Of a DNA stretch of 64,000 nucleotides, positions 19,131 to 39,022 are shown one piece after another. The position numbers and the translations under genes are program-made. Position 1 is the first letter of the stretch; each line of letters begins with the position of its first letter. This DNA is from Candidatus Marinacidobacterium sp. (GTDB lineage: Bacteria; Acidobacteriota; Vicinamibacteria; Marinacidobacterales; Marinacidobacteraceae), in NCBI GenBank assembly GCA_965220965.1, contig CBDCRI010000001.1, forward strand, positions 1-64,000, read 5' to 3'. The notes under the pieces were generated by a model that was given only the letters and a program-made list of their open reading frames with translations, ran no database searches and was not told where the DNA came from.

Positions 19131-19174
19131 CTGTGGGCCCAACGCGTCACCGCGCGCGAGCGGAATCCCCGACT

Positions 19175-19819
19175 ATGCTAACCCTTGCAGTCATCTCGCA
19201 GAAGGGCGGGGCCGGGAAGACAACCCTGTCGATCAACATGGCCGTGGCCGCCCACCTGAAGGGGCAGAGCGTCCTGCTGGTCGACCTGGACCCGCAGGGC
19301 AGCGCGGCAGGCTGGGCGGAAGGCCGCGACCAGGACGAGCCCACCGTGACCGCGGAGCAGGCGCACCGGCTCCCGGCCGTGCTGGAGCTGGCGGCCGAGC
19401 ACGGCGCCGACCTGGTGGTGCTCGACACCGCCCCCCACTCCGAGTCCACCGCCCTGGCGGCCGCGCGGGCGGCCGACTTGGTGCTGATCCCATGCCGGCC
19501 CGCCATCTTCGACCTGCGCGCCATTTCCGCCTCCTTCGACCTCGCGGCGCTGGCCGGAACCCCCGCGGCCGCGGTCCTGAACGCGGTGCCGCCGCAGGGG
19601 TCGCTCGCCGACGAGGCGGCTGCGGCGATCGAGAGGGCCGGGCGCGCCGTGGCGCCGGTGCGAATCGGCAGCCGCGTCGCCTTCGTGCACGCGGCGACCT
19701 CCGGCCTGGCGCCGATGGAGTCGGACCCGAACGGCAAGGCCGCCCGGGAGGCCGCGGCGCTCCACGAGTGGGCGGTCGCCCACGCCGAAGACCAACGCAA
19801 TGCTGAGGAAAGTCCATGA
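19175..19819 (+). CDS. parA: ParA-family partition ATPase (short type Ib)
   Basis: SQKGGAGKTT, LVDLDPQGSA, VLDTAP, LVLIPCRP. TGGTACACT extended -10 at 19124-19132. Confidence 0.95.
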   Translation: MLTLAVISQKGGAGKTTLSINMAVAAHLKGQSVLLVDLDPQGSAAGWAEGRDQDEPTVTAEQAHRLPAVLELAAEHGADLVVLDTAPHSESTALAAARAADLVLIPCRPAIFDLRAISASFDLAALAGTPAAAVLNAVPPQGSLADEAAAAIERAGRAVAPVRIGSRVAFVHAATSGLAPMESDPNGKAAREAAALHEWAVAHAEDQRNAEESP

Positions 19820-20136
19820 AAGGAAAGAAGCCATCCTTGGGATCCGCACTGGAGGCCAGCAAGGCGGCCGAACGCGAAGAGGCGCCGTCGGCGGGGGAGG
19901 GGACCGCCCTGGCCAAGGCGCCGGTCCCGCCCAATCCCCGCGCCGACCTTGACGGAGGCTACGTGGCCCCGAGCCGCAAGGGCCGGCGCAAGGTGCAGGT
20001 GGTGCTTGCGCCCGAGGTCCTGATGACGCTCAAGCGGATGGCGCTCGACCAGGGGGAGCGCACCCTTCAGGAGCTGATGGTCGAGGCGGTCAACGACCTG
20101 CTGGTCAAGCACGGAAAGGCGCCCATCGCGTCCTAG
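19816..20136 (+). CDS. Ribbon-helix-helix partition protein (ParG-like)
   Basis: ATGA-coupled to parA. Disordered N-terminus then PSRKGRRKVQVVL..LKRMAL..TLQELMVEAVNDLLVKHGK. Confidence 0.85.
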   Translation: MKGKKPSLGSALEASKAAEREEAPSAGEGTALAKAPVPPNPRADLDGGYVAPSRKGRRKVQVVLAPEVLMTLKRMALDQGERTLQELMVEAVNDLLVKHGKAPIAS

Positions 20137-20515
20137 GCAGGATGGGGCCGCGGCGAGGCCTGCCTTGCCCGGAGGTGACGGCGCCGGCCCGAAAGCCGGA
20201 ACAGGCAGCCGCCCACGCGCGGATTCGTCCGAGCCGGATTCATCACGTCATGCCGCCGCTGCCGCACATGGCGCCACGTTGGGGGGCTTTGTGAGGCCGG
20301 AGGGCAAAGCGGCGTCCAAACACAGGCCGACGCGTCCCAAGGCTTTCGGATGTTTGGGCAACATGCCCCGAACCCCTCGCTGTTTTGCCTAGCGGCCTTT
20401 CCGCATTCGGTTCGGCCCGTGAGGCAGGGCGTTCAGGGGGCTGCGGGCGCTTTGCGCTTGGTGCGCAGGCGGTGGTCTCGGCAACTTCCTGGTGGCATAA
20501 GGCACATGCGGCCAG

Positions 20516-21160
20516 TCAATTGGGCGGTCCGACGAACGGGTCCCACTTCAGGTCGGGGGGCCAAGGGAAGCGCTTGAGGTCCGACTCCGCGCGCTCCCGG
20601 CTGATCAGCCCCTGTCGGTAGTGCTGCGATATCCGTGCGGGGACCGCCAGCGTCCGGGTCAGCTCCGACACGGCTGGCAGTGGGTGGCTGGGGTCGTCGG
20701 CCCATTGGTTCAAGTAGGCATGCGCACCAAATGCCGCGCCGTCGAACACGTTCCAGAACAGTCGGGCCATTTGGTAAATGGTGACCCTCGTTCCGCACAT
20801 TAGGGTCGGGGCGAAGACGTGGTCCGCCCGCATGCCGCAGAAGGCCCAGTCTAGGGCGAACCATTCCTTTTGCGTGAACTCGCCCGTGTCGAGAATGCGG
20901 CGGAAGTCGGCCACAGTGATACGCAGGTCGTGCGCCAGTCCCGCGCAGTGCTTGTGCAGGAACCAGTCCGGTCCGCCGTTGGCGAGGTAGTCGGGCAAAT
21001 CGGCATCCGCAAACCGTTTCAGCTCCGCTCGGTCGAAGTCGGCAAGGGGCCTCAGTGGGCGCATCATCAACGGGTGGTCGTGGCTCTCGACGCCGTCAGG
21101 CAGTATGTCGTCGGGGGGATACATCCAGGCGCCCTGATCATTCGATGGGGCAGCGCTCAT
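20516..21160 (-). CDS. Hypothetical protein, partner of AbiEii-like gene
   Basis: ATGA-coupled downstream of 21157..21972. Shares the L.KH.AG...I.V.DF motif with 16270..16689. Confidence 0.75.
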   Translation of the reverse strand: MSAAPSNDQGAWMYPPDDILPDGVESHDHPLMMRPLRPLADFDRAELKRFADADLPDYLANGGPDWFLHKHCAGLAHDLRITVADFRRILDTGEFTQKEWFALDWAFCGMRADHVFAPTLMCGTRVTIYQMARLFWNVFDGAAFGAHAYLNQWADDPSHPLPAVSELTRTLAVPARISQHYRQGLISRERAESDLKRFPWPPDLKWDPFVGPPN

Positions 21161-21972
21161 GGCGAGGCTCCACGCGACGGCAAGTGCCGCGGGATGCGCT
21201 TTGCCACAGGAATCAGGGAGATATCCCGCGCCTCAAGAGCTTCGGCGATGCGCTCGCCCAAGCCCACCATCTCGACGCGGTAGGCGCCTTGGATTATGGG
21301 GCGCCCGCTCGCCCCCGTTGTCGGGTCGCGCGGCCCTTCACGCAGGTTCTGGGCGACCTGCCGCAGCATCTGCTCCGGTTTGCCCTTGAGCACCTCGTTG
21401 ATGACGCAGGGATCCACCGCCATGCAGACGGCGATGTCGTACAGGTCACGCTGCGGCGTGCGCAGGCCGGGGCTGCCCACGGGCGCGCGCACGCGGCCCA
21501 TGCGACCGAACAGCTTGCCTTGCATGATGTGTCGAATGGGCGAGGCAACGATGGGCGTGCCCTCGATACGCCGGACGGAGCCGTCTTCCGCAGGATCCCG
21601 CCTTGCCGAAATGCTGGTGCATAGGCTCCACGACGCGGAGTCCCCAATCTGTTCGCCAAACAGTTGAAGGCTGGTTCCGATTCGCAGCGTGGCTGGATCT
21701 GGGAGGCTCGATGGCGATGTCAGCGCTTGGTCAAGCAGCGCTCCCGCCATTTTGCTGAAGATGTCGGGATCGCTCCGTTGCGCCTGCATCCAAGAGGCCA
21801 AAGGCATGGACAGGTCGATGTCCGTCGACAGCCTGTGTTGCCAAAGCGCAGCAAGGACGGAGCCTCCGCCCATTCGAAGCGCGCCTTCCGGGAACAGCGG
21901 CGAAAGCGCCCTGTCGAGCTTGCGGAACGTCTCGCGCAGGGATTCGTGAAGTTGTATGTCGGGCTCGGACAT
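21157..21972 (-). CDS. AbiEii-family nucleotidyltransferase
   Basis: MGGGSVLAALWQHRLSTDIDL, GKLFGR, RDLYDIA. Confidence 0.85.
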   Translation of the reverse strand: MSEPDIQLHESLRETFRKLDRALSPLFPEGALRMGGGSVLAALWQHRLSTDIDLSMPLASWMQAQRSDPDIFSKMAGALLDQALTSPSSLPDPATLRIGTSLQLFGEQIGDSASWSLCTSISARRDPAEDGSVRRIEGTPIVASPIRHIMQGKLFGRMGRVRAPVGSPGLRTPQRDLYDIAVCMAVDPCVINEVLKGKPEQMLRQVAQNLREGPRDPTTGASGRPIIQGAYRVEMVGLGERIAEALEARDISLIPVAKRIPRHLPSRGASP

Positions 21973-22129
21973 GGGGGATTCGCTGCAAGCGCCGCCTCCC
22001 TCCGATGATATCACCGCACCGAAAGGGACTGAGCCGCTCACTTGCAGGTTGCCTGCCGGCGCGCATGATGTCCGCATGCGGAGGCCAAATCCGGGGCGGC
22101 TTCAAGACCGCAGTGAACCGGGCACCCCG

Positions 22130-22265
22130 AGCCGCGCTTGATTCTGGCACAGGGCTGCCCCTTCCGCCCGTCGCCCAGGCACTGCGCTCCCAAACGATGG
22201 GCCGGATGCGCCAGCAAGGCCGGATGCCCATCCGCGACGCTCACGGCCTGGCAGGCGCCCCCTGA
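22130..22265 (+). pseudogene. Degenerate AbiEii fragment
   Basis: ALDSGTGLPLPPVAQALRSQTMGRMRQQGRMPIRDAHGLAGA aligns with AIESRTGMPLLPVAQTLHGKLIGRMLHHGQTLSRDAYDLACA of 16655..17461. Confidence 0.7.
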
Positions 22266-22469
22266 CGGCGCACAAGGCCGTGGCCATCTTTTTCTCTTGC
22301 TGTTCGCCCTCCACGTGATCGGTGAACGGCTAGAGGACGCCCGCACCGCAGAGCCCGGGAGGACGCGGCGGCCACGGGGCGCATGCGGGAGGCTGGCCAG
22401 GTCCACGGGCCGCACAGCCCGGCAGCCGGCGCGCCCGCAATGCTCCGGCGCGGTTGCGGCGGCACGGAT

Positions 22470-22499
22470 TTGACAGGGGGCGCGCCGCCCGCGCATGAT
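22470..22499 (+). promoter_or_regulatory. sigma70-type promoter TTGACA-18 bp-CATGAT
   Basis: Consensus -35 at 22470-22475 and -10-like hexamer at 22494-22499. Predicted +1 falls at the first CRISPR-like repeat. Confidence 0.6.
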
Positions 22500-22503
22500 G
22501 GAA

Positions 22504-22588
22504 GCGTTCCCGCGAAGCGGGATGACCCGACTATCGTACGCAGTACGGCGGTCGAGACCTTACGTTCCCCGCCTTGCGGGGATGCCCG
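22504..22588 (+). CRISPR. Orphan degenerate type I-E-like mini-array (repeat, 32-nt spacer, repeat)
   Basis: GCGTTCCCGCGAAGCGGGATGACCCG (22504-22529) and ACGTTCCCCGCCTTGCGGGGATGCCCG (22562-22588) resemble the I-E repeat GTGTTCCCCGCnnnnGCGGGGATnAACCG, each with a hairpin. Spacer is 32 nt. No cas genes in the window. Confidence 0.6.
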
Positions 22589-22689
22589 GGCGGGCCAGAG
22601 GCCAGGTGGCCCAGCCCGCCTCATCCTCCATGGAGGACGAGACGCGTGCGATGCCCTGAGCCGCAACCCAGCCACGGAGGCGCCAAGCG

Positions 22690-23313
22690 ATGAGCGACCA
22701 AGGGCGGCCCACGCGCAAGCATCCCATGGCGGCCGCGGAGCAGGCCATTCCCGTCCGCATAGGCCCCACCAGCGTGCGCCATTACATCTCCGGGCACCAG
22801 GCGCTCAACCTGATCGACCCGGACTGCCCGTCAAGCGGCGACTCGCAAAGCGACGGAGCATGGTTCGTCCCACACCAGGGGCGCACGCGCGACGGCATGG
22901 ACGCGTTGATCGCCAACAGGACGCAGGACGGCTACCTGTTCCGAACGCCGCACGAGCTTCTGGGCTGGGACCGGCTGTTCGACGCCAGGCCGTCCCTGCG
23001 CTTCATCGGGCACCCCGAGGGCGAGGCCGACGTGCCCGTTTGGGCGGCGCACCACGACCGGGCCATCATCGACGGCGGATGGTCGTGGCTCACCGAACAG
23101 CCCTCGGGCTTCCCGGGATCCTACGACGGGCCATCGGTGGCCGAGTGGCTCTGGACCGACGTGCAGTTCGGGCACGTCCACCGGCTGGCCCGCAAGCTGG
23201 AGACGTCCCTTGACGGCGAGGCGAGACGCCTGTGGCGGCGCTGGATGCGAGACCTGACGCCGGACGCCGAGTGGGAGCGGGGCACGCACATGCGTCGTGG
23301 AATTTCGGCTTGA
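22690..23313 (+). CDS. Putative antitoxin/regulator partner of AbiEii (AbiEi-like position)
   Basis: RBS GGAGG; HYISGHQALNL...AAHHDRAIID; its stop overlaps the AbiEii start (TTGA). Confidence 0.7.
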   Translation: MSDQGRPTRKHPMAAAEQAIPVRIGPTSVRHYISGHQALNLIDPDCPSSGDSQSDGAWFVPHQGRTRDGMDALIANRTQDGYLFRTPHELLGWDRLFDARPSLRFIGHPEGEADVPVWAAHHDRAIIDGGWSWLTEQPSGFPGSYDGPSVAEWLWTDVQFGHVHRLARKLETSLDGEARRLWRRWMRDLTPDAEWERGTHMRRGISA

Positions 23314-24092
23314 CCGACCGCACGCCACCGCCGAAGGTTGAACTCTCGCCCCGCGAGCGCATGCAGCATGACGTGCTGGTCCATGTCGCCCGGGGGCTGT
23401 CCCTCGGCCCGCCGCGGCGTGAAAGGTGGTTTGCCATCAAGGGCGGCATGGCATTGGCGGCCGCCTACGGGCTGACCCGCCCATCCGACGACCTTGACAT
23501 CGACGTAGCCCAAAAGATCGATGCGGTGGCAAGGATCGGACGCACGCTGGAGCATCGCAAGGACCTGCAAGTCGAGCGGCTTGACGTCAAGCAGCGCGGG
23601 CGCGGCTACGTCCGCCTTTGGTTCCGCCACGTCGATTACCCCGAGCCGTTCCGAACGAAGGTCGACGTCAACGTCCGCGACGGTCTCCTCAAGCCCGCCC
23701 TCGACAGGGACCGAATCGTCACGGTGGACGGGCTCGCCGTCTATGACATGCCCACTCTCGCCAACCTCAAGCTCAACCCGCTGGTGGGCGAGGACTGCCG
23801 CGTCAAGGCCGGGGATCTCTACGACGCCGCCTGGCTGACGGCCGCCCACCCCGACGCGATCACGTTGGAGAACAAGCTCCGCCTGCACGAATGGACCGGA
23901 GCCTTCCATGGAAGTGTGGAGGAGGAGTGGCGCCAAGCCTTCGCCCAGGACAAAAACCTCGGTTCGTCGAGGTGCAGCTGCGACGACGTGGTGCTGGCGC
24001 TCATGGCCAACCTGGAGGCGGACGCTGAGCTGCAAAGCCACCTAAGGTCGCAGCAGCCAGCGCCGGCGCCCGGATCGGCAATGCGCCCCTGA
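23310..24092 (+). CDS. AbiEii-family nucleotidyltransferase toxin
   Basis: IKGGMALAAAYGLTRPSDDLDID, LANLKL, RVKAGDLYDA. Confidence 0.9.
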   Translation: MTDRTPPPKVELSPRERMQHDVLVHVARGLSLGPPRRERWFAIKGGMALAAAYGLTRPSDDLDIDVAQKIDAVARIGRTLEHRKDLQVERLDVKQRGRGYVRLWFRHVDYPEPFRTKVDVNVRDGLLKPALDRDRIVTVDGLAVYDMPTLANLKLNPLVGEDCRVKAGDLYDAAWLTAAHPDAITLENKLRLHEWTGAFHGSVEEEWRQAFAQDKNLGSSRCSCDDVVLALMANLEADAELQSHLRSQQPAPAPGSAMRP

Positions 24093-24491
24093 CCGCCCGC
24101 CGCCCCCCCGCGTCGCGCAACCCCCCGACATGCCCTTGCGGGCGGTCGGTTCCAACCAAGGCAAGGGGACGGATACACAGCCCCGGCATGCCGAGGGGAG
24201 CTTAGCCCATGCCGCCCGTCCCGGACGCCCGCCGGACGCAGGCCCCGACGGCCCAAGCAGTGGCCGGGGAGGGGAGGGCGGCCGGGCTTCCCACCGCCCC
24301 GCGGGACGCATTTGCTTTTTGGGCGGCCATGCGCCTACATTAGGCGTCGACATGGGCCACAGGCATCGCAGCAGCGCCATGCGGCGAATGGGCGGCGGCA
24401 CGCCGCCCGACGCGCTGTCCAAGGCCAAGGCCCCCAGCCGACCCAGGCTGCATGCGCCCATGCCAACCCCACCCGCAAGCGGAGCGCCGCC

Positions 24492-25139
24492 GTGCCGTCC
24501 CTCCTAGGCATCGTGATCGCCATCGCACTGGTCGCGGCCCTTTCCGCCGCCGTGATCGACGCCGCCGTGGACCAGCGCGACGCCATCGAGGCCGAGTGGG
24601 CCACCGCCTACCTGAGGGACGCCGTGCTCGCCGCCGTCGCCGCCCACCCCACCGCCTGCCGCGGCGCCGACGAGTTCGGCGCCTACGACGCCGTGGACCC
24701 GTGGGACTGGGGCGACATCAGCGCCGCCGGACGCATCCTCCCCGGCAGCCGCCTCGAGGCCATCCTGGCCGGCGACGACGCGGCCGACCCCATGCTGCGC
24801 AGCGCCACCCTCCACGAGCAGAGCGGCTTGGTCACCGTCGAGCTGGTCGCCGACCAGCCCGAGGAGCGCGAGCTGCTGGCGCGCATGGCCGCCACCGGCG
24901 GCTGGGAGTTCGCCAAGCGCCTGACCGCCAACGGCCTGGAGATCACCTTCCCGGTCGCCCCCGTGGCCGACAGCCCGCACGCCGCCGAGGGCCTGTACGG
25001 CCACGGCGCCCGGCGGCTCGACGCCCCCTCGCACGTCATCGGCCCGCCGTGCTCCGCCCACCCGGAGGACGATGCGGTGAGCCGCGACTACCTGCTGCCC
25101 GAAGCCTCCGGCGGCGAGTGGAGCCACCCGTGGAAATGA
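24492..25139 (+). CDS. Pilin-like membrane-anchored protein (PilM-like position)
   Basis: GTG start after GGAG; N-terminal hydrophobic helix then amphipathic helix; ATGA-coupled to the prepilin gene. Confidence 0.55.
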   Translation: MPSLLGIVIAIALVAALSAAVIDAAVDQRDAIEAEWATAYLRDAVLAAVAAHPTACRGADEFGAYDAVDPWDWGDISAAGRILPGSRLEAILAGDDAADPMLRSATLHEQSGLVTVELVADQPEERELLARMAATGGWEFAKRLTANGLEITFPVAPVADSPHAAEGLYGHGARRLDAPSHVIGPPCSAHPEDDAVSRDYLLPEASGGEWSHPWK

Positions 25140-26083
25140 CCCCATCGGCGGCCGACGCCCGGCAGGCGGGATACACGCTGCTGGAGATGGCCGCCGTGCT
25201 CGGCATCGCCGCCGCGATGGCCCTCGCCGCCACGCCCGCCCTCGTGGACCGCGCCGCCCAGCAGCGCGTGGACCTCACCGTCGAGGGGCTGCGCACGCTG
25301 GTCAGCGCCGCCGTCAGCTACCGGACCGACGGCGGGCAGATCACCGAGCCGGACCACGGCCACTACGGGACCTGGCCGGAGCGCGCCGCCGACCTGCTCG
25401 GCGCCGACACCAGCACGCCGCCGGACGGCGTGCCCGACGAGGCCATCTACCTCGGCCACTTCCGCAACGACGGCGCCGCGCTCGCCACCCGCGACCTGCT
25501 CAACGCCATGGGCCTGCCCATCGAGTTCGGCTTCGCGGCCGGGGACGCGGACCGCGAGGGCGTGCTGCGCATCCAAACCTCGTTCCGCGCCCAGGAGCAC
25601 GCGCGGATGGCCGCCACCCGGTTCGGCCCGACCGCCTGCGCCTCCGCCGACGCCGCCTGCGTCGCCGCCGGCTGCGCCGCGGACACGCCGGCCACCACGC
25701 CGCCCGCCTTCCACACCTGCGCGTTCGTGCCGCCCCCCGCCCACGAGTCCGTGCTCGACGCCTTCGCGCTGCTCGACGGCTCCCGCCCCTTCGTGCTCGA
25801 CGCCGCCGCGCAGCTGCAGATACTCAACGGCGCGGACGTCAGCGTCGCCATCGACAGCGACGGCAACATCACCGCGGAAGGGCTGCTGACCGCCGATGAG
25901 GGCTTCGAGGTGACCGGCGACCTGGAGATCACCGACGGCAACCTCGACATCGACGGCCGCGTGGCGGCGGACATCGTGGTCGCCCGGGAGATCGACACCG
26001 CCGAGCTGCAGTACCTGACCGCCACCAGCTGCCCGACGGGATCCACCATCACGATCCCGGCCAAGACCATCACCTGCCCATGA
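25136..26083 (+). CDS. Type IV prepilin-like protein resembling the PilV constant region
   Basis: QAG/YTLLEM cleavage-methylation motif. C-terminal beta-rich GNITAEGLLTA..GDLEI..GRVAAD..ELQYL..C segment recalls PilV. Confidence 0.75.
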   Translation: MTPSAADARQAGYTLLEMAAVLGIAAAMALAATPALVDRAAQQRVDLTVEGLRTLVSAAVSYRTDGGQITEPDHGHYGTWPERAADLLGADTSTPPDGVPDEAIYLGHFRNDGAALATRDLLNAMGLPIEFGFAAGDADREGVLRIQTSFRAQEHARMAATRFGPTACASADAACVAAGCAADTPATTPPAFHTCAFVPPPAHESVLDAFALLDGSRPFVLDAAAQLQILNGADVSVAIDSDGNITAEGLLTADEGFEVTGDLEITDGNLDIDGRVAADIVVAREIDTAELQYLTATSCPTGSTITIPAKTITCP

Positions 26084-26973
26084 GGCGCCAGGCGGGCTTC
26101 ACCCTGCTGCACCTGGTGGTGGGCGTCGCCCTCCTCGCCTACTTCCTCAGCTTCAGCGTGCCCGTCGGCTTCGAGCGGGCCGGCCTGGAACGCAGCGTGG
26201 CGGGCACGCAGGCCGGCATCCACACCCTCTCCGCGGCCGCGCGCGCCCACTTCCTGACGCAGGCCCAGTGGCCCACCCTGGCCGAGGCGCGGGAGTCGGT
26301 CTCGACGCAGACCGGGGGTTTCCTCAGCGAGGCCCACCCCCTCGGCGGCGCCTACCAGCTGACGCCAAGGGCGACGGCCGGGGCCAACTGGCGGGCCGGC
26401 GGGCTGTCCATCGCCGCGTGCGGCATCACTCTGCAGCGCCACCGAACGGCGCTCGCCGTGCGCCTTGGCCACCGGGCGGCCATCGACGGCGACTGCGTGC
26501 GCCTGGAGATCGCCCCGTTCGGAGCCGAGCCGGCCCACCTGGCGAGCGCCGACGACGGGGGAGGGCGCCTGTTCGCCGACGTGGGCATCGACGGCGCGGC
26601 CGCGGCGCACGGGCCGGCGCCCTGGACGGGCGGCATGAGCATTGAGGCCAGCAACGTCCCAGGGGGCGCGGGCTCCTTCGTCGAGCGCTCCGCCCTGCGC
26701 GGGAACGGCGACCTCGAGTTCGCGGGCACGGTCTCCTCGGCCGGCGGGGCGTTCGGCACCGAGCGGCCCGCCTGGACGCCAACGCCGCCGCACGCCAAGC
26801 CGAACCCCTACCCGTCGGGCGCTGACGCGACCGTCGGCACGGTGGAGGGAGACCTGCGGCTGGTCACCGACGACCCGTTGAGCGGCCGCGTGCCGGGCGA
26901 CCTCACGCGCGAGGTCGATTGGGAGGTCGATGCGATTTACGCCAAGAGCATCTGCGGAGGGGAGAGCTGCTGA
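26080..26973 (+). CDS. Second type IV prepilin-like protein (non-Glu at +5)
   Basis: MRRQAG/FTLLHLVVG; ATGA-coupled; QWP..LA..GGFL..HPLGGAY pilin-like helix and loop. Confidence 0.75.
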   Translation: MRRQAGFTLLHLVVGVALLAYFLSFSVPVGFERAGLERSVAGTQAGIHTLSAAARAHFLTQAQWPTLAEARESVSTQTGGFLSEAHPLGGAYQLTPRATAGANWRAGGLSIAACGITLQRHRTALAVRLGHRAAIDGDCVRLEIAPFGAEPAHLASADDGGGRLFADVGIDGAAAAHGPAPWTGGMSIEASNVPGGAGSFVERSALRGNGDLEFAGTVSSAGGAFGTERPAWTPTPPHAKPNPYPSGADATVGTVEGDLRLVTDDPLSGRVPGDLTREVDWEVDAIYAKSICGGESC

Positions 26974-27025
26974 AACGAGGCCGCCGAGGACGGCCAATCA
27001 ATCCCATTGGGGAAGGACGAGAAAC

Positions 27026-37567: not shown

Positions 37568-38770
37568 TCAAGCGGCGGACGGCCGGGGCAGGGTGCAGGA
37601 CTTCAACTCGCCGACGTAGTCCCGCAGCGCTTGGATGCCGGTGGCCTCGGCGTCCCGGCACCAGTCGCGCAGGGCCGCCAGCAGGTCGTCGGCGTTGCCG
37701 CCGCGCTTGGCCCAGATGCCATGCAGGCGCAGGCGCAGGCTGTGGGCAGCGGCGAGGGCTTGGCTGGCGTCCACGGCCGCCTCAATGCGCCGCATGCCGC
37801 TGGCGCTCACTCGGGCCTGCTCCCGGCACAGCGCCGCCCGCGCCCGCCGGAACAGCTTGACGGTGGCCTGGTCGGCATTGGCGCACTCAAGCTTGATGAG
37901 CGGCTTGACCACTTGGCTCCTGTACTTGGCCATCAGCCGGAAGCGGTCGTTGAGCACCGCCCAAGCGGTGTCAATGTCCAGCGTGGTCTTGCCGGGCACC
38001 TGCTTGACGATGGGGCCGGTGCTCTTCGGTTTCGCGAGCCCGAACGCCTGGAAAAGACGGATCCACATCCATCCGATGTCGAACTCCCACCACTTTTGCG
38101 AGAGCTTCGCGGAATTGGGGTAGGCGTGATGGTTGTTGTGCAGCTCCTCGCCGCCAATGACGATGCCCCAAGGCAGCATGTTGGCGCTGGCGTCAGGGGA
38201 CTCATAGTTGCGGTAGCCCCAAAAGTGGCCGATGCCATTGACCACGCCGGCCCCCAGCACCGGGATCCAGAGCATCTGCACGGCCCAGACCGTCAGGCCA
38301 ATGAAGCCGAACAGAAGGATGTTGATGGCGGCGAGAATGGTCACGCCCGCCGTGGGGTGGCGGGAGTAAAGGTTGCGCTCCACCCAGTCGTCCGGGCAGC
38401 CGGCGCCGTAGCGCTCAACGGAGGCGCGGTCCGCGGCGGCCTCCCGGTAGGCTTCCGTGCCTTTCCAGAAGATCGCCCCCAATCCCCGCCTCTGCGGGCT
38501 GTGCGGGTCGTCGTCGGTCTCGGTGGCGGCGTGGTGCTTGCGGTGCACGGCCACCCATTCCCGGGTGATCATGCCCGTGGTGAGCCACGACCAGAAGCGG
38601 AGGAAGTGCTGCAGCGCCGGATGCAGGTCCAGCGCCCGATGCGCGGCGTGCCGGTGCAGGTAGACCGTCACGGTGACGATGGTGACGTGCGTGGTTGCCA
38701 GGACGTAGGCAACGACGCCCCAAGTTGAGGGGTTCGCAAGTCCATGGCCAAGCCAATGCAATGTGTCCAA
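37568..38770 (-). CDS. Membrane fatty-acid (delta-9 acyl-lipid/CoA) desaturase
   Basis: His boxes HRHAAH, HRKHH and HNNHH; DDPHSP; TTG start after GGGAG. Confidence 0.92.
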   Translation of the reverse strand: MDTLHWLGHGLANPSTWGVVAYVLATTHVTIVTVTVYLHRHAAHRALDLHPALQHFLRFWSWLTTGMITREWVAVHRKHHAATETDDDPHSPQRRGLGAIFWKGTEAYREAAADRASVERYGAGCPDDWVERNLYSRHPTAGVTILAAINILLFGFIGLTVWAVQMLWIPVLGAGVVNGIGHFWGYRNYESPDASANMLPWGIVIGGEELHNNHHAYPNSAKLSQKWWEFDIGWMWIRLFQAFGLAKPKSTGPIVKQVPGKTTLDIDTAWAVLNDRFRLMAKYRSQVVKPLIKLECANADQATVKLFRRARAALCREQARVSASGMRRIEAAVDASQALAAAHSLRLRLHGIWAKRGGNADDLLAALRDWCRDAEATGIQALRDYVGELKSCTLPRPSAA

Positions 38771-39022
38771 CGGCGTTCGCTCCCTTACCTTGTTGTTGTG
38801 TGTCGCCTTCCCTTGGGCCCGGTTGCCGGGCCGCCCTCCCGATCCCGGGGGCGGCCTCCTTGCTGGCGCCATTGCGCGCATCGATCGCGGGCGCAGGGGA
38901 ACTCTGGCGACAACGACCGCCCATTGCAAGCCCGCGCGACGGCTCAGGGCCTTGCGGGGTTCGGGCCTGCCGGATCAGGTGGCGTCCCCGATTCCGACAG
39001 GATCCTGAGCCGCCGCAGCGGT

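Follow-up and report, generated by a model that had tools for sequence, protein, structure and literature searches.

Organization of the element

We analyzed the first 64,000 nt (the window) of replicon C2 of a Candidatus Marinacidobacterium genome, and window coordinates are C2 coordinates throughout. The genome consists of two replicons, C2 (363,302 bp, 73% G+C) and C1 (2.88 Mb), 3.25 Mb in total. Upstream of a pair of AbiE-like genes the window carries what its sequence suggests is probably a degenerate mini-array of the type I-E CRISPR class with its own promoter, forming a functional gene for a CRISPR RNA (crRNA)-like RNA. This locus is called copy a; a second copy, copy b, lies at C2:283535-283620. 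The features of copy a are as follows.

22470-22499, plus strand: sigma-70-type promoter TTGACA-18-CATGAT, with the predicted start at or just before repeat 1
22504-22529, plus strand: repeat-like sequence 1, GCGTTCCCGCGAAGCGGGATGACCCG, a 6-bp perfect hairpin with a 3-nt loop
22530-22561, plus strand: spacer-like sequence of exactly 32 nt between repeats 1 and 2
22562-22589, plus strand: repeat-like sequence 2, ACGTTCCCCGCCTTGCGGGGATGCCCGG, with a 7-bp perfect stem (TCCCCGC/GCGGGGA) and a CTT loop
22588-22622, plus strand: G+C-rich hairpin 3' of repeat 2 without a T-run, from folding; no terminator-like site was called
22624-22637, no strand: 14-nt perfect palindrome TCCTCCATGGAGGA, without a counterpart near copy b

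A first-pass annotation of the window had described a promoter followed by two hairpin repeats around a spacer of exactly 32 nt, and this arrangement was borne out at 22470-22589. The proposed type I-E derivation also stands, with repeats of the I-E class and the exact 32-nt spacer. The promoter matches at 10/12 positions and is the sole sigma-70-like site on either strand in 21900-22900 (mean of 0.0 in 50 shuffles). Repeat 1 consists of a shortened stem (TCCCGC/GCGGGA), one pair shorter than that of repeat 2, a GAA loop, and then an 8-nt handle, ATGACCCG, which is the same in both copies and in a natural I-E repeat class. Identity to natural I-E repeats is 25-26/26 (gapped) for repeat 1 and 22-24/28 for repeat 2. 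An Rfam scan of 21000-24000 at E values up to 10 returned three chance-level matches and none to CRISPR repeat families.

The palindrome at 22624-22637 had been offered as a possible very decayed third repeat. The palindrome is real, but it contains neither CCCCGC nor GCGGGG. The downstream regions of the two copies score 17 against a shuffled null mean of 19, and with no homology between them both a third repeat and a reversed repeat shared by the copies were dropped. The palindrome may be an operator of the downstream operon. The place of the hairpin at 22588-22622 is taken in copy b by an unrelated one, whose loop is TTCG.

Two copies with conserved repeats and a changed spacer

Copies a and b align without a gap over 86 nt. 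A loose I-E core pattern matches the genome 34 times, with pairs at 58-nt spacing only here and at C2:283537/283595. With a covariance model derived from both copies, each of them scores 116 bits and the next match elsewhere in the genome 14.5 bits, a level that the CRISPR arrays of C2 do not exceed either (a 27-bit match is the reverse strand of copy a itself). With this model no third copy of the unit was found anywhere in the 3.25-Mb genome. Homology does not extend beyond the unit, the upstream and downstream flanks of the two copies being no more alike than shuffled controls. Because the genome holds exactly two copies, membership in a dispersed REP-like hairpin family, which the first-pass annotation had named as one observation that would overturn its reading, is ruled out.

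The differences between the copies are unevenly distributed. Repeat 1 differs at 1/26 positions, in the loop; repeat 2 is identical over its first 24 nt and differs at 2 of its last 4 nt; the spacer differs at 8/32 positions, with its 32-nt length kept exactly. Counted together, the guide-forming parts of the repeats show 1/50 differences, against 10/36 in the spacer plus the tail of repeat 2 (Fisher p=5e-4). Degeneration is therefore asymmetric, repeat 1 having kept its 5' handle and repeat 2 its stem-loop. The same asymmetry, with the same two parts kept, is described for CreA/CreR mini-arrays in a published report (10.1101/2023.03.10.532045). The seeds of the two spacers (A in copy a, B in copy b) differ at 3 of the first 5 nt. 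As evidence of constraint, this comparison of two sequences is suggestive.

On the two strands of the 3.25-Mb genome together, the motif TTGACA-N16-19-CATGAT is found at just two places. The first, at 22470, immediately precedes copy a; the second, at C2:283308, is on the strand of copy b and some 200 nt upstream of it. Between the -10 box and repeat 1 an indel puts the two copies in different reading frames, so that they have no open reading frame (ORF) in common and the unit is not coding. In copy b the stretch from the distal promoter to repeat 1 holds a 61-codon open frame (C2:283378-283560), which ends inside that repeat; copy a lacks this frame, and it is probably spurious. Three reversed array-type repeats directly follow copy b.

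When four sequencing runs (X1-X4) were compared, the contigs of run X2 showed no differences over 21800-22788, and the flanks of copy b were present as well. Run X2 probably comes from the same or a near-identical strain and is therefore not independent support for the element.

A type I-E Cascade on the same replicon

No cas genes were found in 1-64000 among the families searched (Cas7e, Cas6e, Cas5, Cse2, Cas1, Cas3 core, and Cas3 HD), all matches lying outside the window. The earlier statement to this effect holds for these families, and the label "orphan" is right for the window and wrong for the replicon, which carries cas genes. A search for host I-E cas genes located Cse1 (weak, 32 bits), Cse2 (31 bits, above the cut-off), Cas7e (322 bits), Cas5e (112 bits), and Cas6e (87 bits, Pfam) at C2:155.5-160.3 kb. 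I-E Cascade and Cas6e are thus complete, about 133 kb from copy a on the same replicon. I-E cas3 was not found (no cas3 up to the cut-off on C2), and I-E cas1 and cas2 were not found in the genome. Within the I-E locus (C2:155518-163970), the gap between cas6e and the array, the usual position of cas1-cas2, is occupied by a PIN-domain gene and a prepilin peptidase gene. The locus may encode a binding-only Cascade.

Six I-E arrays lie on C2, one at 163.45 kb and five at 190.8 kb and 330.5-333.8 kb. Their 53 repeats (C2:163450-333790) show 21-29/29 identity to the consensus GTTGGCCCCGCCTGCGCGGGGATGGACCC. The arrays at 330.5-333.8 kb have repeated leaders and spacers in common, which suggests segmental duplication and not spacer acquisition. 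G at position 5 and a loop of 4 nt are common to all 53 array repeats; in the element, all four repeats have T and a 3-nt loop. With this T before the stem and these loops, the element forms a class of its own and is not just a fragment of the arrays now present. Repeat 1 is closest to the classical I-E class, found in arrays of relatives of the same order and class (best 25-26/26 vs best 23 to any host repeat), and repeat 2 is equally close to host repeats and to the classical class. Host arrays contain handles that differ from ATGACCCG by one base, such as ATGACCCC at 330554; the handle variant ATGAACCC is present there as well. These variants make compatibility of the element with the host Cascade plausible.

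One spacer of the array at the I-E locus (C2:163845-163880) matches C2:162861-162894 at 88% over 34 nt (E 0.001), some 0.6-1 kb upstream of the array to which it belongs. The I-E system is one of three type I systems in the 3.25-Mb genome, with an I-D-like module also on the megaplasmid (C2:320246-327275; Csc2, Cas3', Cas4, Cas1, and its own array) and a type I-G locus on the chromosome (C1:1450904-1464933; Csb1, Csb2, Cas3g at 616 bits, and arrays).

Proposed guide RNA and search for targets

We infer that the predicted mini-array RNA would be transcribed, processed, loaded, and brought to DNA in the following way. Transcription from TTGACA-18-CATGAT would start at repeat 1, and the plasmid's own Cas6e would cut at the 3' base of each hairpin to release a 60-nt RNA (22522-22581) made up of an 8-nt handle (AUGACCCG), a 32-nt guide, and a 20-nt hairpin handle. 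This RNA would be loaded into the plasmid's I-E Cascade. As I-E Cas3 was not found, such a complex would attach to DNA but leave it uncut, and could then silence a target or simply occupy Cascade. Any target at recognizable complementarity would lie outside this genome.

Both spacers were scanned full-length and in a seed-weighted manner against both strands of both replicons. One weak site in csb2 excepted, nothing above chance was found in the genome for either spacer. Seven non-self sites match at least 9/10 informative seed positions of spacer A, and a canonical AAG adjoins only one of the seven (C1:1453185, minus strand, in C1:1453154-1453188). This site falls within csb2, with the start of the type I-G cas3 (cas3g) following 375 nt downstream, and is the best match flanked by a protospacer-adjacent motif (PAM), with 10 of the first 11 nt. 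Its placement is unusual because only about 0.7% of the genome belongs to the three delimited cas regions. As it mismatches the spacer at seed position 3, lies in coding sequence, and was discovered post hoc, it is a weak lead only. Near the AbiE genes (21000-24500) and upstream of cse1 (155300-155700), no site with at least 8/10 seed positions of spacer A was found. The sequence CTATGGTATAAT at the start of cse1, a 7/10 seed match to spacer A by eye, is at chance level and was rejected; it resembles an extended -10 box and occurs at C2:155527-155548, where the cse1 region starts, and at about C2:260870-260884. Spacer B has no placed match with a canonical PAM in a cas locus. A comparison with replicon, host, and viromes, which the first-pass annotation had suggested, gave no convincing self-target and no convincing phage or plasmid protospacer (both spacers against the genome and viral contigs, spacer A against phage and plasmid collections).

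Similar elements in other bacteria

The pattern GGGATGACCCG-N30-34-CGTTCCCCGC (end of repeat 1, gap, start of repeat 2) was scanned over 185,579 species, one genome each, and found in 41 stretches, mostly true I-E arrays of 61-nt period or array edges. At least 9 of the 41 are solitary two-repeat mini-arrays. When flanking proteins were examined at five solitary loci (L027, L031, L032, L037, and L042), Cse1 was downstream in 5/5 and Cas3 upstream in 4/4 with a scanned upstream ORF (L027 has only about 450 nt upstream and is outside this count). Mini-arrays of the CreR type sit in cas3-cse1 gaps (L027, L031, L032, L037, L038, and L042) of Gemmobacter, Jannaschia, Xanthobacter, and metagenome-assembled genomes, where AAG and a partial copy of the 5' end of the spacer directly follow repeat 2 (by eye). 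In Xanthobacter the AAG-flanked partial spacer copy is just upstream of a putative promoter, TTGACT ... TAGCAT.

Among relatives, the four best loci examined from the covariance search of 149 related genomes are ordinary I-E arrays. BLAST against 60 relatives gave short matches only, and the 7 loci examined of 19 are ordinary sequence and not repeats. A hairpin-pattern scan around cas7e in 6 of the 7 Cas7e-bearing relatives found a similar element in 0/6. In one relative (G020, L084) the I-E locus has cas3 adjoining cse1, with a small ordinary 3-repeat array upstream of cas3. One relative (G036) is an unpublished genome and was counted only in negative tallies. The repeat 1 pattern gave 0 matches in viral contigs. 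The element was seen only in this genome and in a near-identical sample.

AbiE-like genes and a probable plasmid maintenance region

The genes around copy a are listed below.

19133-19819, plus strand: ParA-type ATPase of a plasmid partition pair (AAA_31/CbiA/ParA matches)
19816-20136, plus strand: ribbon-helix-helix protein of the partition pair (Antitox_RHH, E 8e-13)
21157-22077, minus strand: divergent gene whose N-terminus weakly resembles AbiEii (Pfam PF08843; 21.9 bits, slightly below the cut-off of 22.5)
22690-23313, plus strand: 207-aa protein in the antitoxin position of an AbiE-like pair, without a Pfam or NCBIfam match
23232-24092, plus strand: AbiEii-family nucleotidyltransferase, the toxin (Pfam PF08843, E 3.4e-10, 40.7 bits, cut-off 22.5); the actual start probably lies beyond 23232

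The first-pass annotation had read the last two genes as an antitoxin-AbiEii operon. The AbiEii domain is present in 23232-24092; the upstream 207-aa protein matches no AbiEi family, and because it has no family match, "antitoxin" is for 22690-23313 a designation by position. Its family is rare (5 clusters among 5.8 billion proteins), with homologues in 0/60 relatives and 0/400 genomes of the phylum. A paralogue with 65% identity lies at C2:328479-329105, in an AbiE-like pair (C2:327694-329105) between the I-D array and the I-E arrays that looks like toxin-antitoxin cargo in a CRISPR region.

Besides the promoter of the mini-array, no second promoter-like site was found upstream of the AbiE-like genes, and nothing resembling a terminator was found from repeat 2 to the AbiE start, so that co-transcription of the mini-array with AbiE is plausible from sequence. 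The copy a transcript would then probably continue into the AbiE-like operon, and processing at repeat 2 would separate the guide from the mRNA. Such a read-through link would be positional and limited to copy a. Copy b has no AbiE-like neighbor and no related gene follows it; by eye, the upstream stretch examined at the paralogous pair (C2:327.7-329.1 kb) has no such hairpins. Given these observations and the rarity of the 207-aa family, we treated the adjacency as positional. CreTA-type control of AbiE, or a coupling of AbiE to Cascade activity, as had been suggested earlier, found no backing: spacer A has no site with at least 8/10 seed positions in 21000-24500, AbiE is missing beside copy b, the stretch examined at the paralogous pair lacks the hairpins, and the unit has no third copy.

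C2 looks like a megaplasmid because of the ParA-type ATPase and the ribbon-helix-helix protein at 19.1-20.1 kb. These partition genes are just upstream of two divergent AbiE-like pairs, in what looks like a plasmid maintenance region. The stretch 20000-27000 gave zero matches to a plasmid collection. Elsewhere in the window, a minus-strand ORF of 453 aa (37568-38929) has Pfam matches to both a fatty-acid desaturase and an ISL3 transposase, and may be a fusion or an over-long frame covering two genes.

Interpretation

We tentatively favor, at a little below an even chance, the reading that the element encodes a crRNA-like RNA, which the plasmid-encoded Cas6e and nuclease-less Cascade would process and load and which would have no recognizable target in this genome. 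Several results weigh against it. The handle agrees with the host consensus ATGGACCC at 5/8 positions when aligned without gaps (manual count), and at 3 nt the loops of the element fall one base short of those in all host repeats. A loop smaller by one base has been proposed as the cause of poor Cas6 processing of a phage I-E mini-array repeat (10.1101/2024.10.29.618823). The first 11 nt of spacer A have no full match anywhere in the genome; spacer A gave no match better than E 0.3 in phage and plasmid collections; and in viral contigs exact patterns of the spacer core and of the first 20 nt of each spacer gave 0 matches. The covariance model detected no relative of the unit among 149 related genomes (best matches up to about 30 bits). 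In metagenome contigs the repeat 1 pattern gave 0 matches and the repeat 2 pattern two solitary hairpins without repeat 1. With two sequences only, the conservation argument is thin.

A rather unlikely alternative is that the unit is a non-functional relic, a fragment of a decaying I-E array that was once copied by recombination. The missing I-E adaptation genes would fit a decaying system, as would the heterogeneous and partly duplicated plasmid arrays and the array-type repeats adjoining copy b in reverse orientation; a relic would also account for the failure to find a target and for the absence of the unit from the 149 relatives. However, neutral decay should strike repeats and spacer equally, yet the differences are concentrated in the spacer and the repeat 2 tail, an asymmetry expected of a single-guide RNA. 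Perfect hairpins are kept in both copies, and the only two promoter motifs of their kind in the genome are upstream of these two copies.

It is improbable that the element is a regulator like CreA or CreR, in which RNA-guided Cascade would repress the AbiE operon or a cas operon through a partial match. The build of the element matches the CreR type, its promoter is the one candidate upstream of the AbiE-like genes, and an AAG-flanked near-seed site is found in csb2 ahead of the I-G cas3. That site has the weaknesses given above, neither the AbiE region nor the cse1 upstream region contains an adequate seed site, and copy b has a different seed and no AbiE neighbor. The CreR examples have an AAG target directly after repeat 2, but none is present here.

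Equally improbable is a decoy, with hairpins that would by themselves soak up Cas6e or Cascade subunits or buffer Cascade levels and a spacer of no relevance. Conserved hairpins, a drifting spacer, and the lack of a target are consistent with this proposal. However, the Cascade to be inhibited is encoded by the same replicon, the 32-nt spacing and the 5' handle are exact in both copies, which a decoy would not need, and, as reported, RNA anti-CRISPRs occur in viral genomes as solitary repeat units (PMC10651486).

In a further, very unlikely reading, the replicon would practice a natural form of CRISPR interference, with an I-E Cascade lacking detected Cas3, Cas1, and Cas2 and a two-copy, non-array guide gene with its own promoter; copy a would be the leader of an AbiE-like addiction operon by the partition genes and couple Cas6e/Cascade activity to plasmid maintenance, and the guide might dampen the type I-G system through the csb2 seed site. 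Least credible is a cis-acting 5' leader that would affect the stability or translation of the AbiE mRNA, its CRISPR origin being incidental: the uninterrupted path from repeat 2 to AbiE and a strong leader fold (z = -3.95) speak for it, but copy b precedes no comparable gene, and any two CRISPR repeats would give the long-range pairing seen in the fold.

Comparison with known systems

Regulatory mini-arrays (CreA, CreR, and Cracr) are a recent class, nearly all described ones being in cas loci or on phages and having an identifiable target. The present case is far from cas genes, is duplicated with hairpins kept and the seed changed, and is accompanied by a Cascade apparently without a nuclease. 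More unusual still is its setting, on a megaplasmid where a complete I-E Cascade and several decaying arrays occur but neither a nuclease nor adaptation genes of type I-E could be detected. Should the RNA be produced and enter Cascade, the plasmid would offer a compact natural system for studying a nuclease-free I-E Cascade supplied with non-array guides; otherwise the element is a well-preserved array relic.

In the published arrangement of CreR (Cas-regulating RNA) the mini-array is followed by an AAG-flanked partial spacer target (10.1101/2023.03.10.532045; 10.1101/2023.03.03.530964). The element resembles CreR in its two degenerate repeats, one spacer, and own promoter (same two reports), and its handle and the 5' half of repeat 2 are as in the cas3-cse1 mini-arrays of Xanthobacter, Gemmobacter, Jannaschia, and two metagenome-assembled genomes. 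Unlike CreR, it lies outside cas loci (22.5 kb and 283.5 kb vs C2:155.5-160.3, C2:320-326, and C1:1451-1457 kb), has no PAM-flanked partial target beside it or at the cse1 promoter, and has two copies with different seeds and 3-nt loops. In contrast to both CreR and CreA, no PAM-flanked site with at least 10 nt from the 5' end of the spacer was found in a cas or toxin promoter. CreTA of type I-B haloarchaea, a Cascade-repressed toxin whose antitoxin is the CreA RNA, likewise combines a mini-array beside a toxin gene with a Cascade-bearing replicon (10.1101/2023.03.03.530964). The CreTA toxin is a small RNA, whereas the toxin here is an AbiEii protein with a putative protein partner; the spacer has no complementarity to the toxin promoter, and the element is not among cas genes.

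Cracr elements, crRNA-like anti-defense RNAs of mobile elements, were delimited by a minimum of 9 PAM-proximal matches to a CreA/CreR spacer already known, and 16/219 candidates in the published survey are plasmid-borne (10.1101/2024.10.29.618823). The element shares with Cracr its location outside a cas locus on a mobile replicon and the one-base-smaller loop also described there. A Cracr-type seed match was not found in this genome, nor in register among the CreR-like spacers of the 41-stretch scan, and the replicon here, unlike in the Cracr case, encodes Cascade itself. With Racr, RNA anti-CRISPRs consisting of solitary repeat units (PMC10651486), the element has in common repeat mimicry by a small non-coding RNA outside arrays; it differs from Racr in having two repeats with exact crRNA spacing and handle and in residing on a cas-bearing ParA replicon that is not viral. 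Mini-arrays for crRNA-like RNAs are already known as CreA and CreR and as Cracr on phages and some plasmids, and we concluded that the element is an atypically placed, displaced new case of this class.

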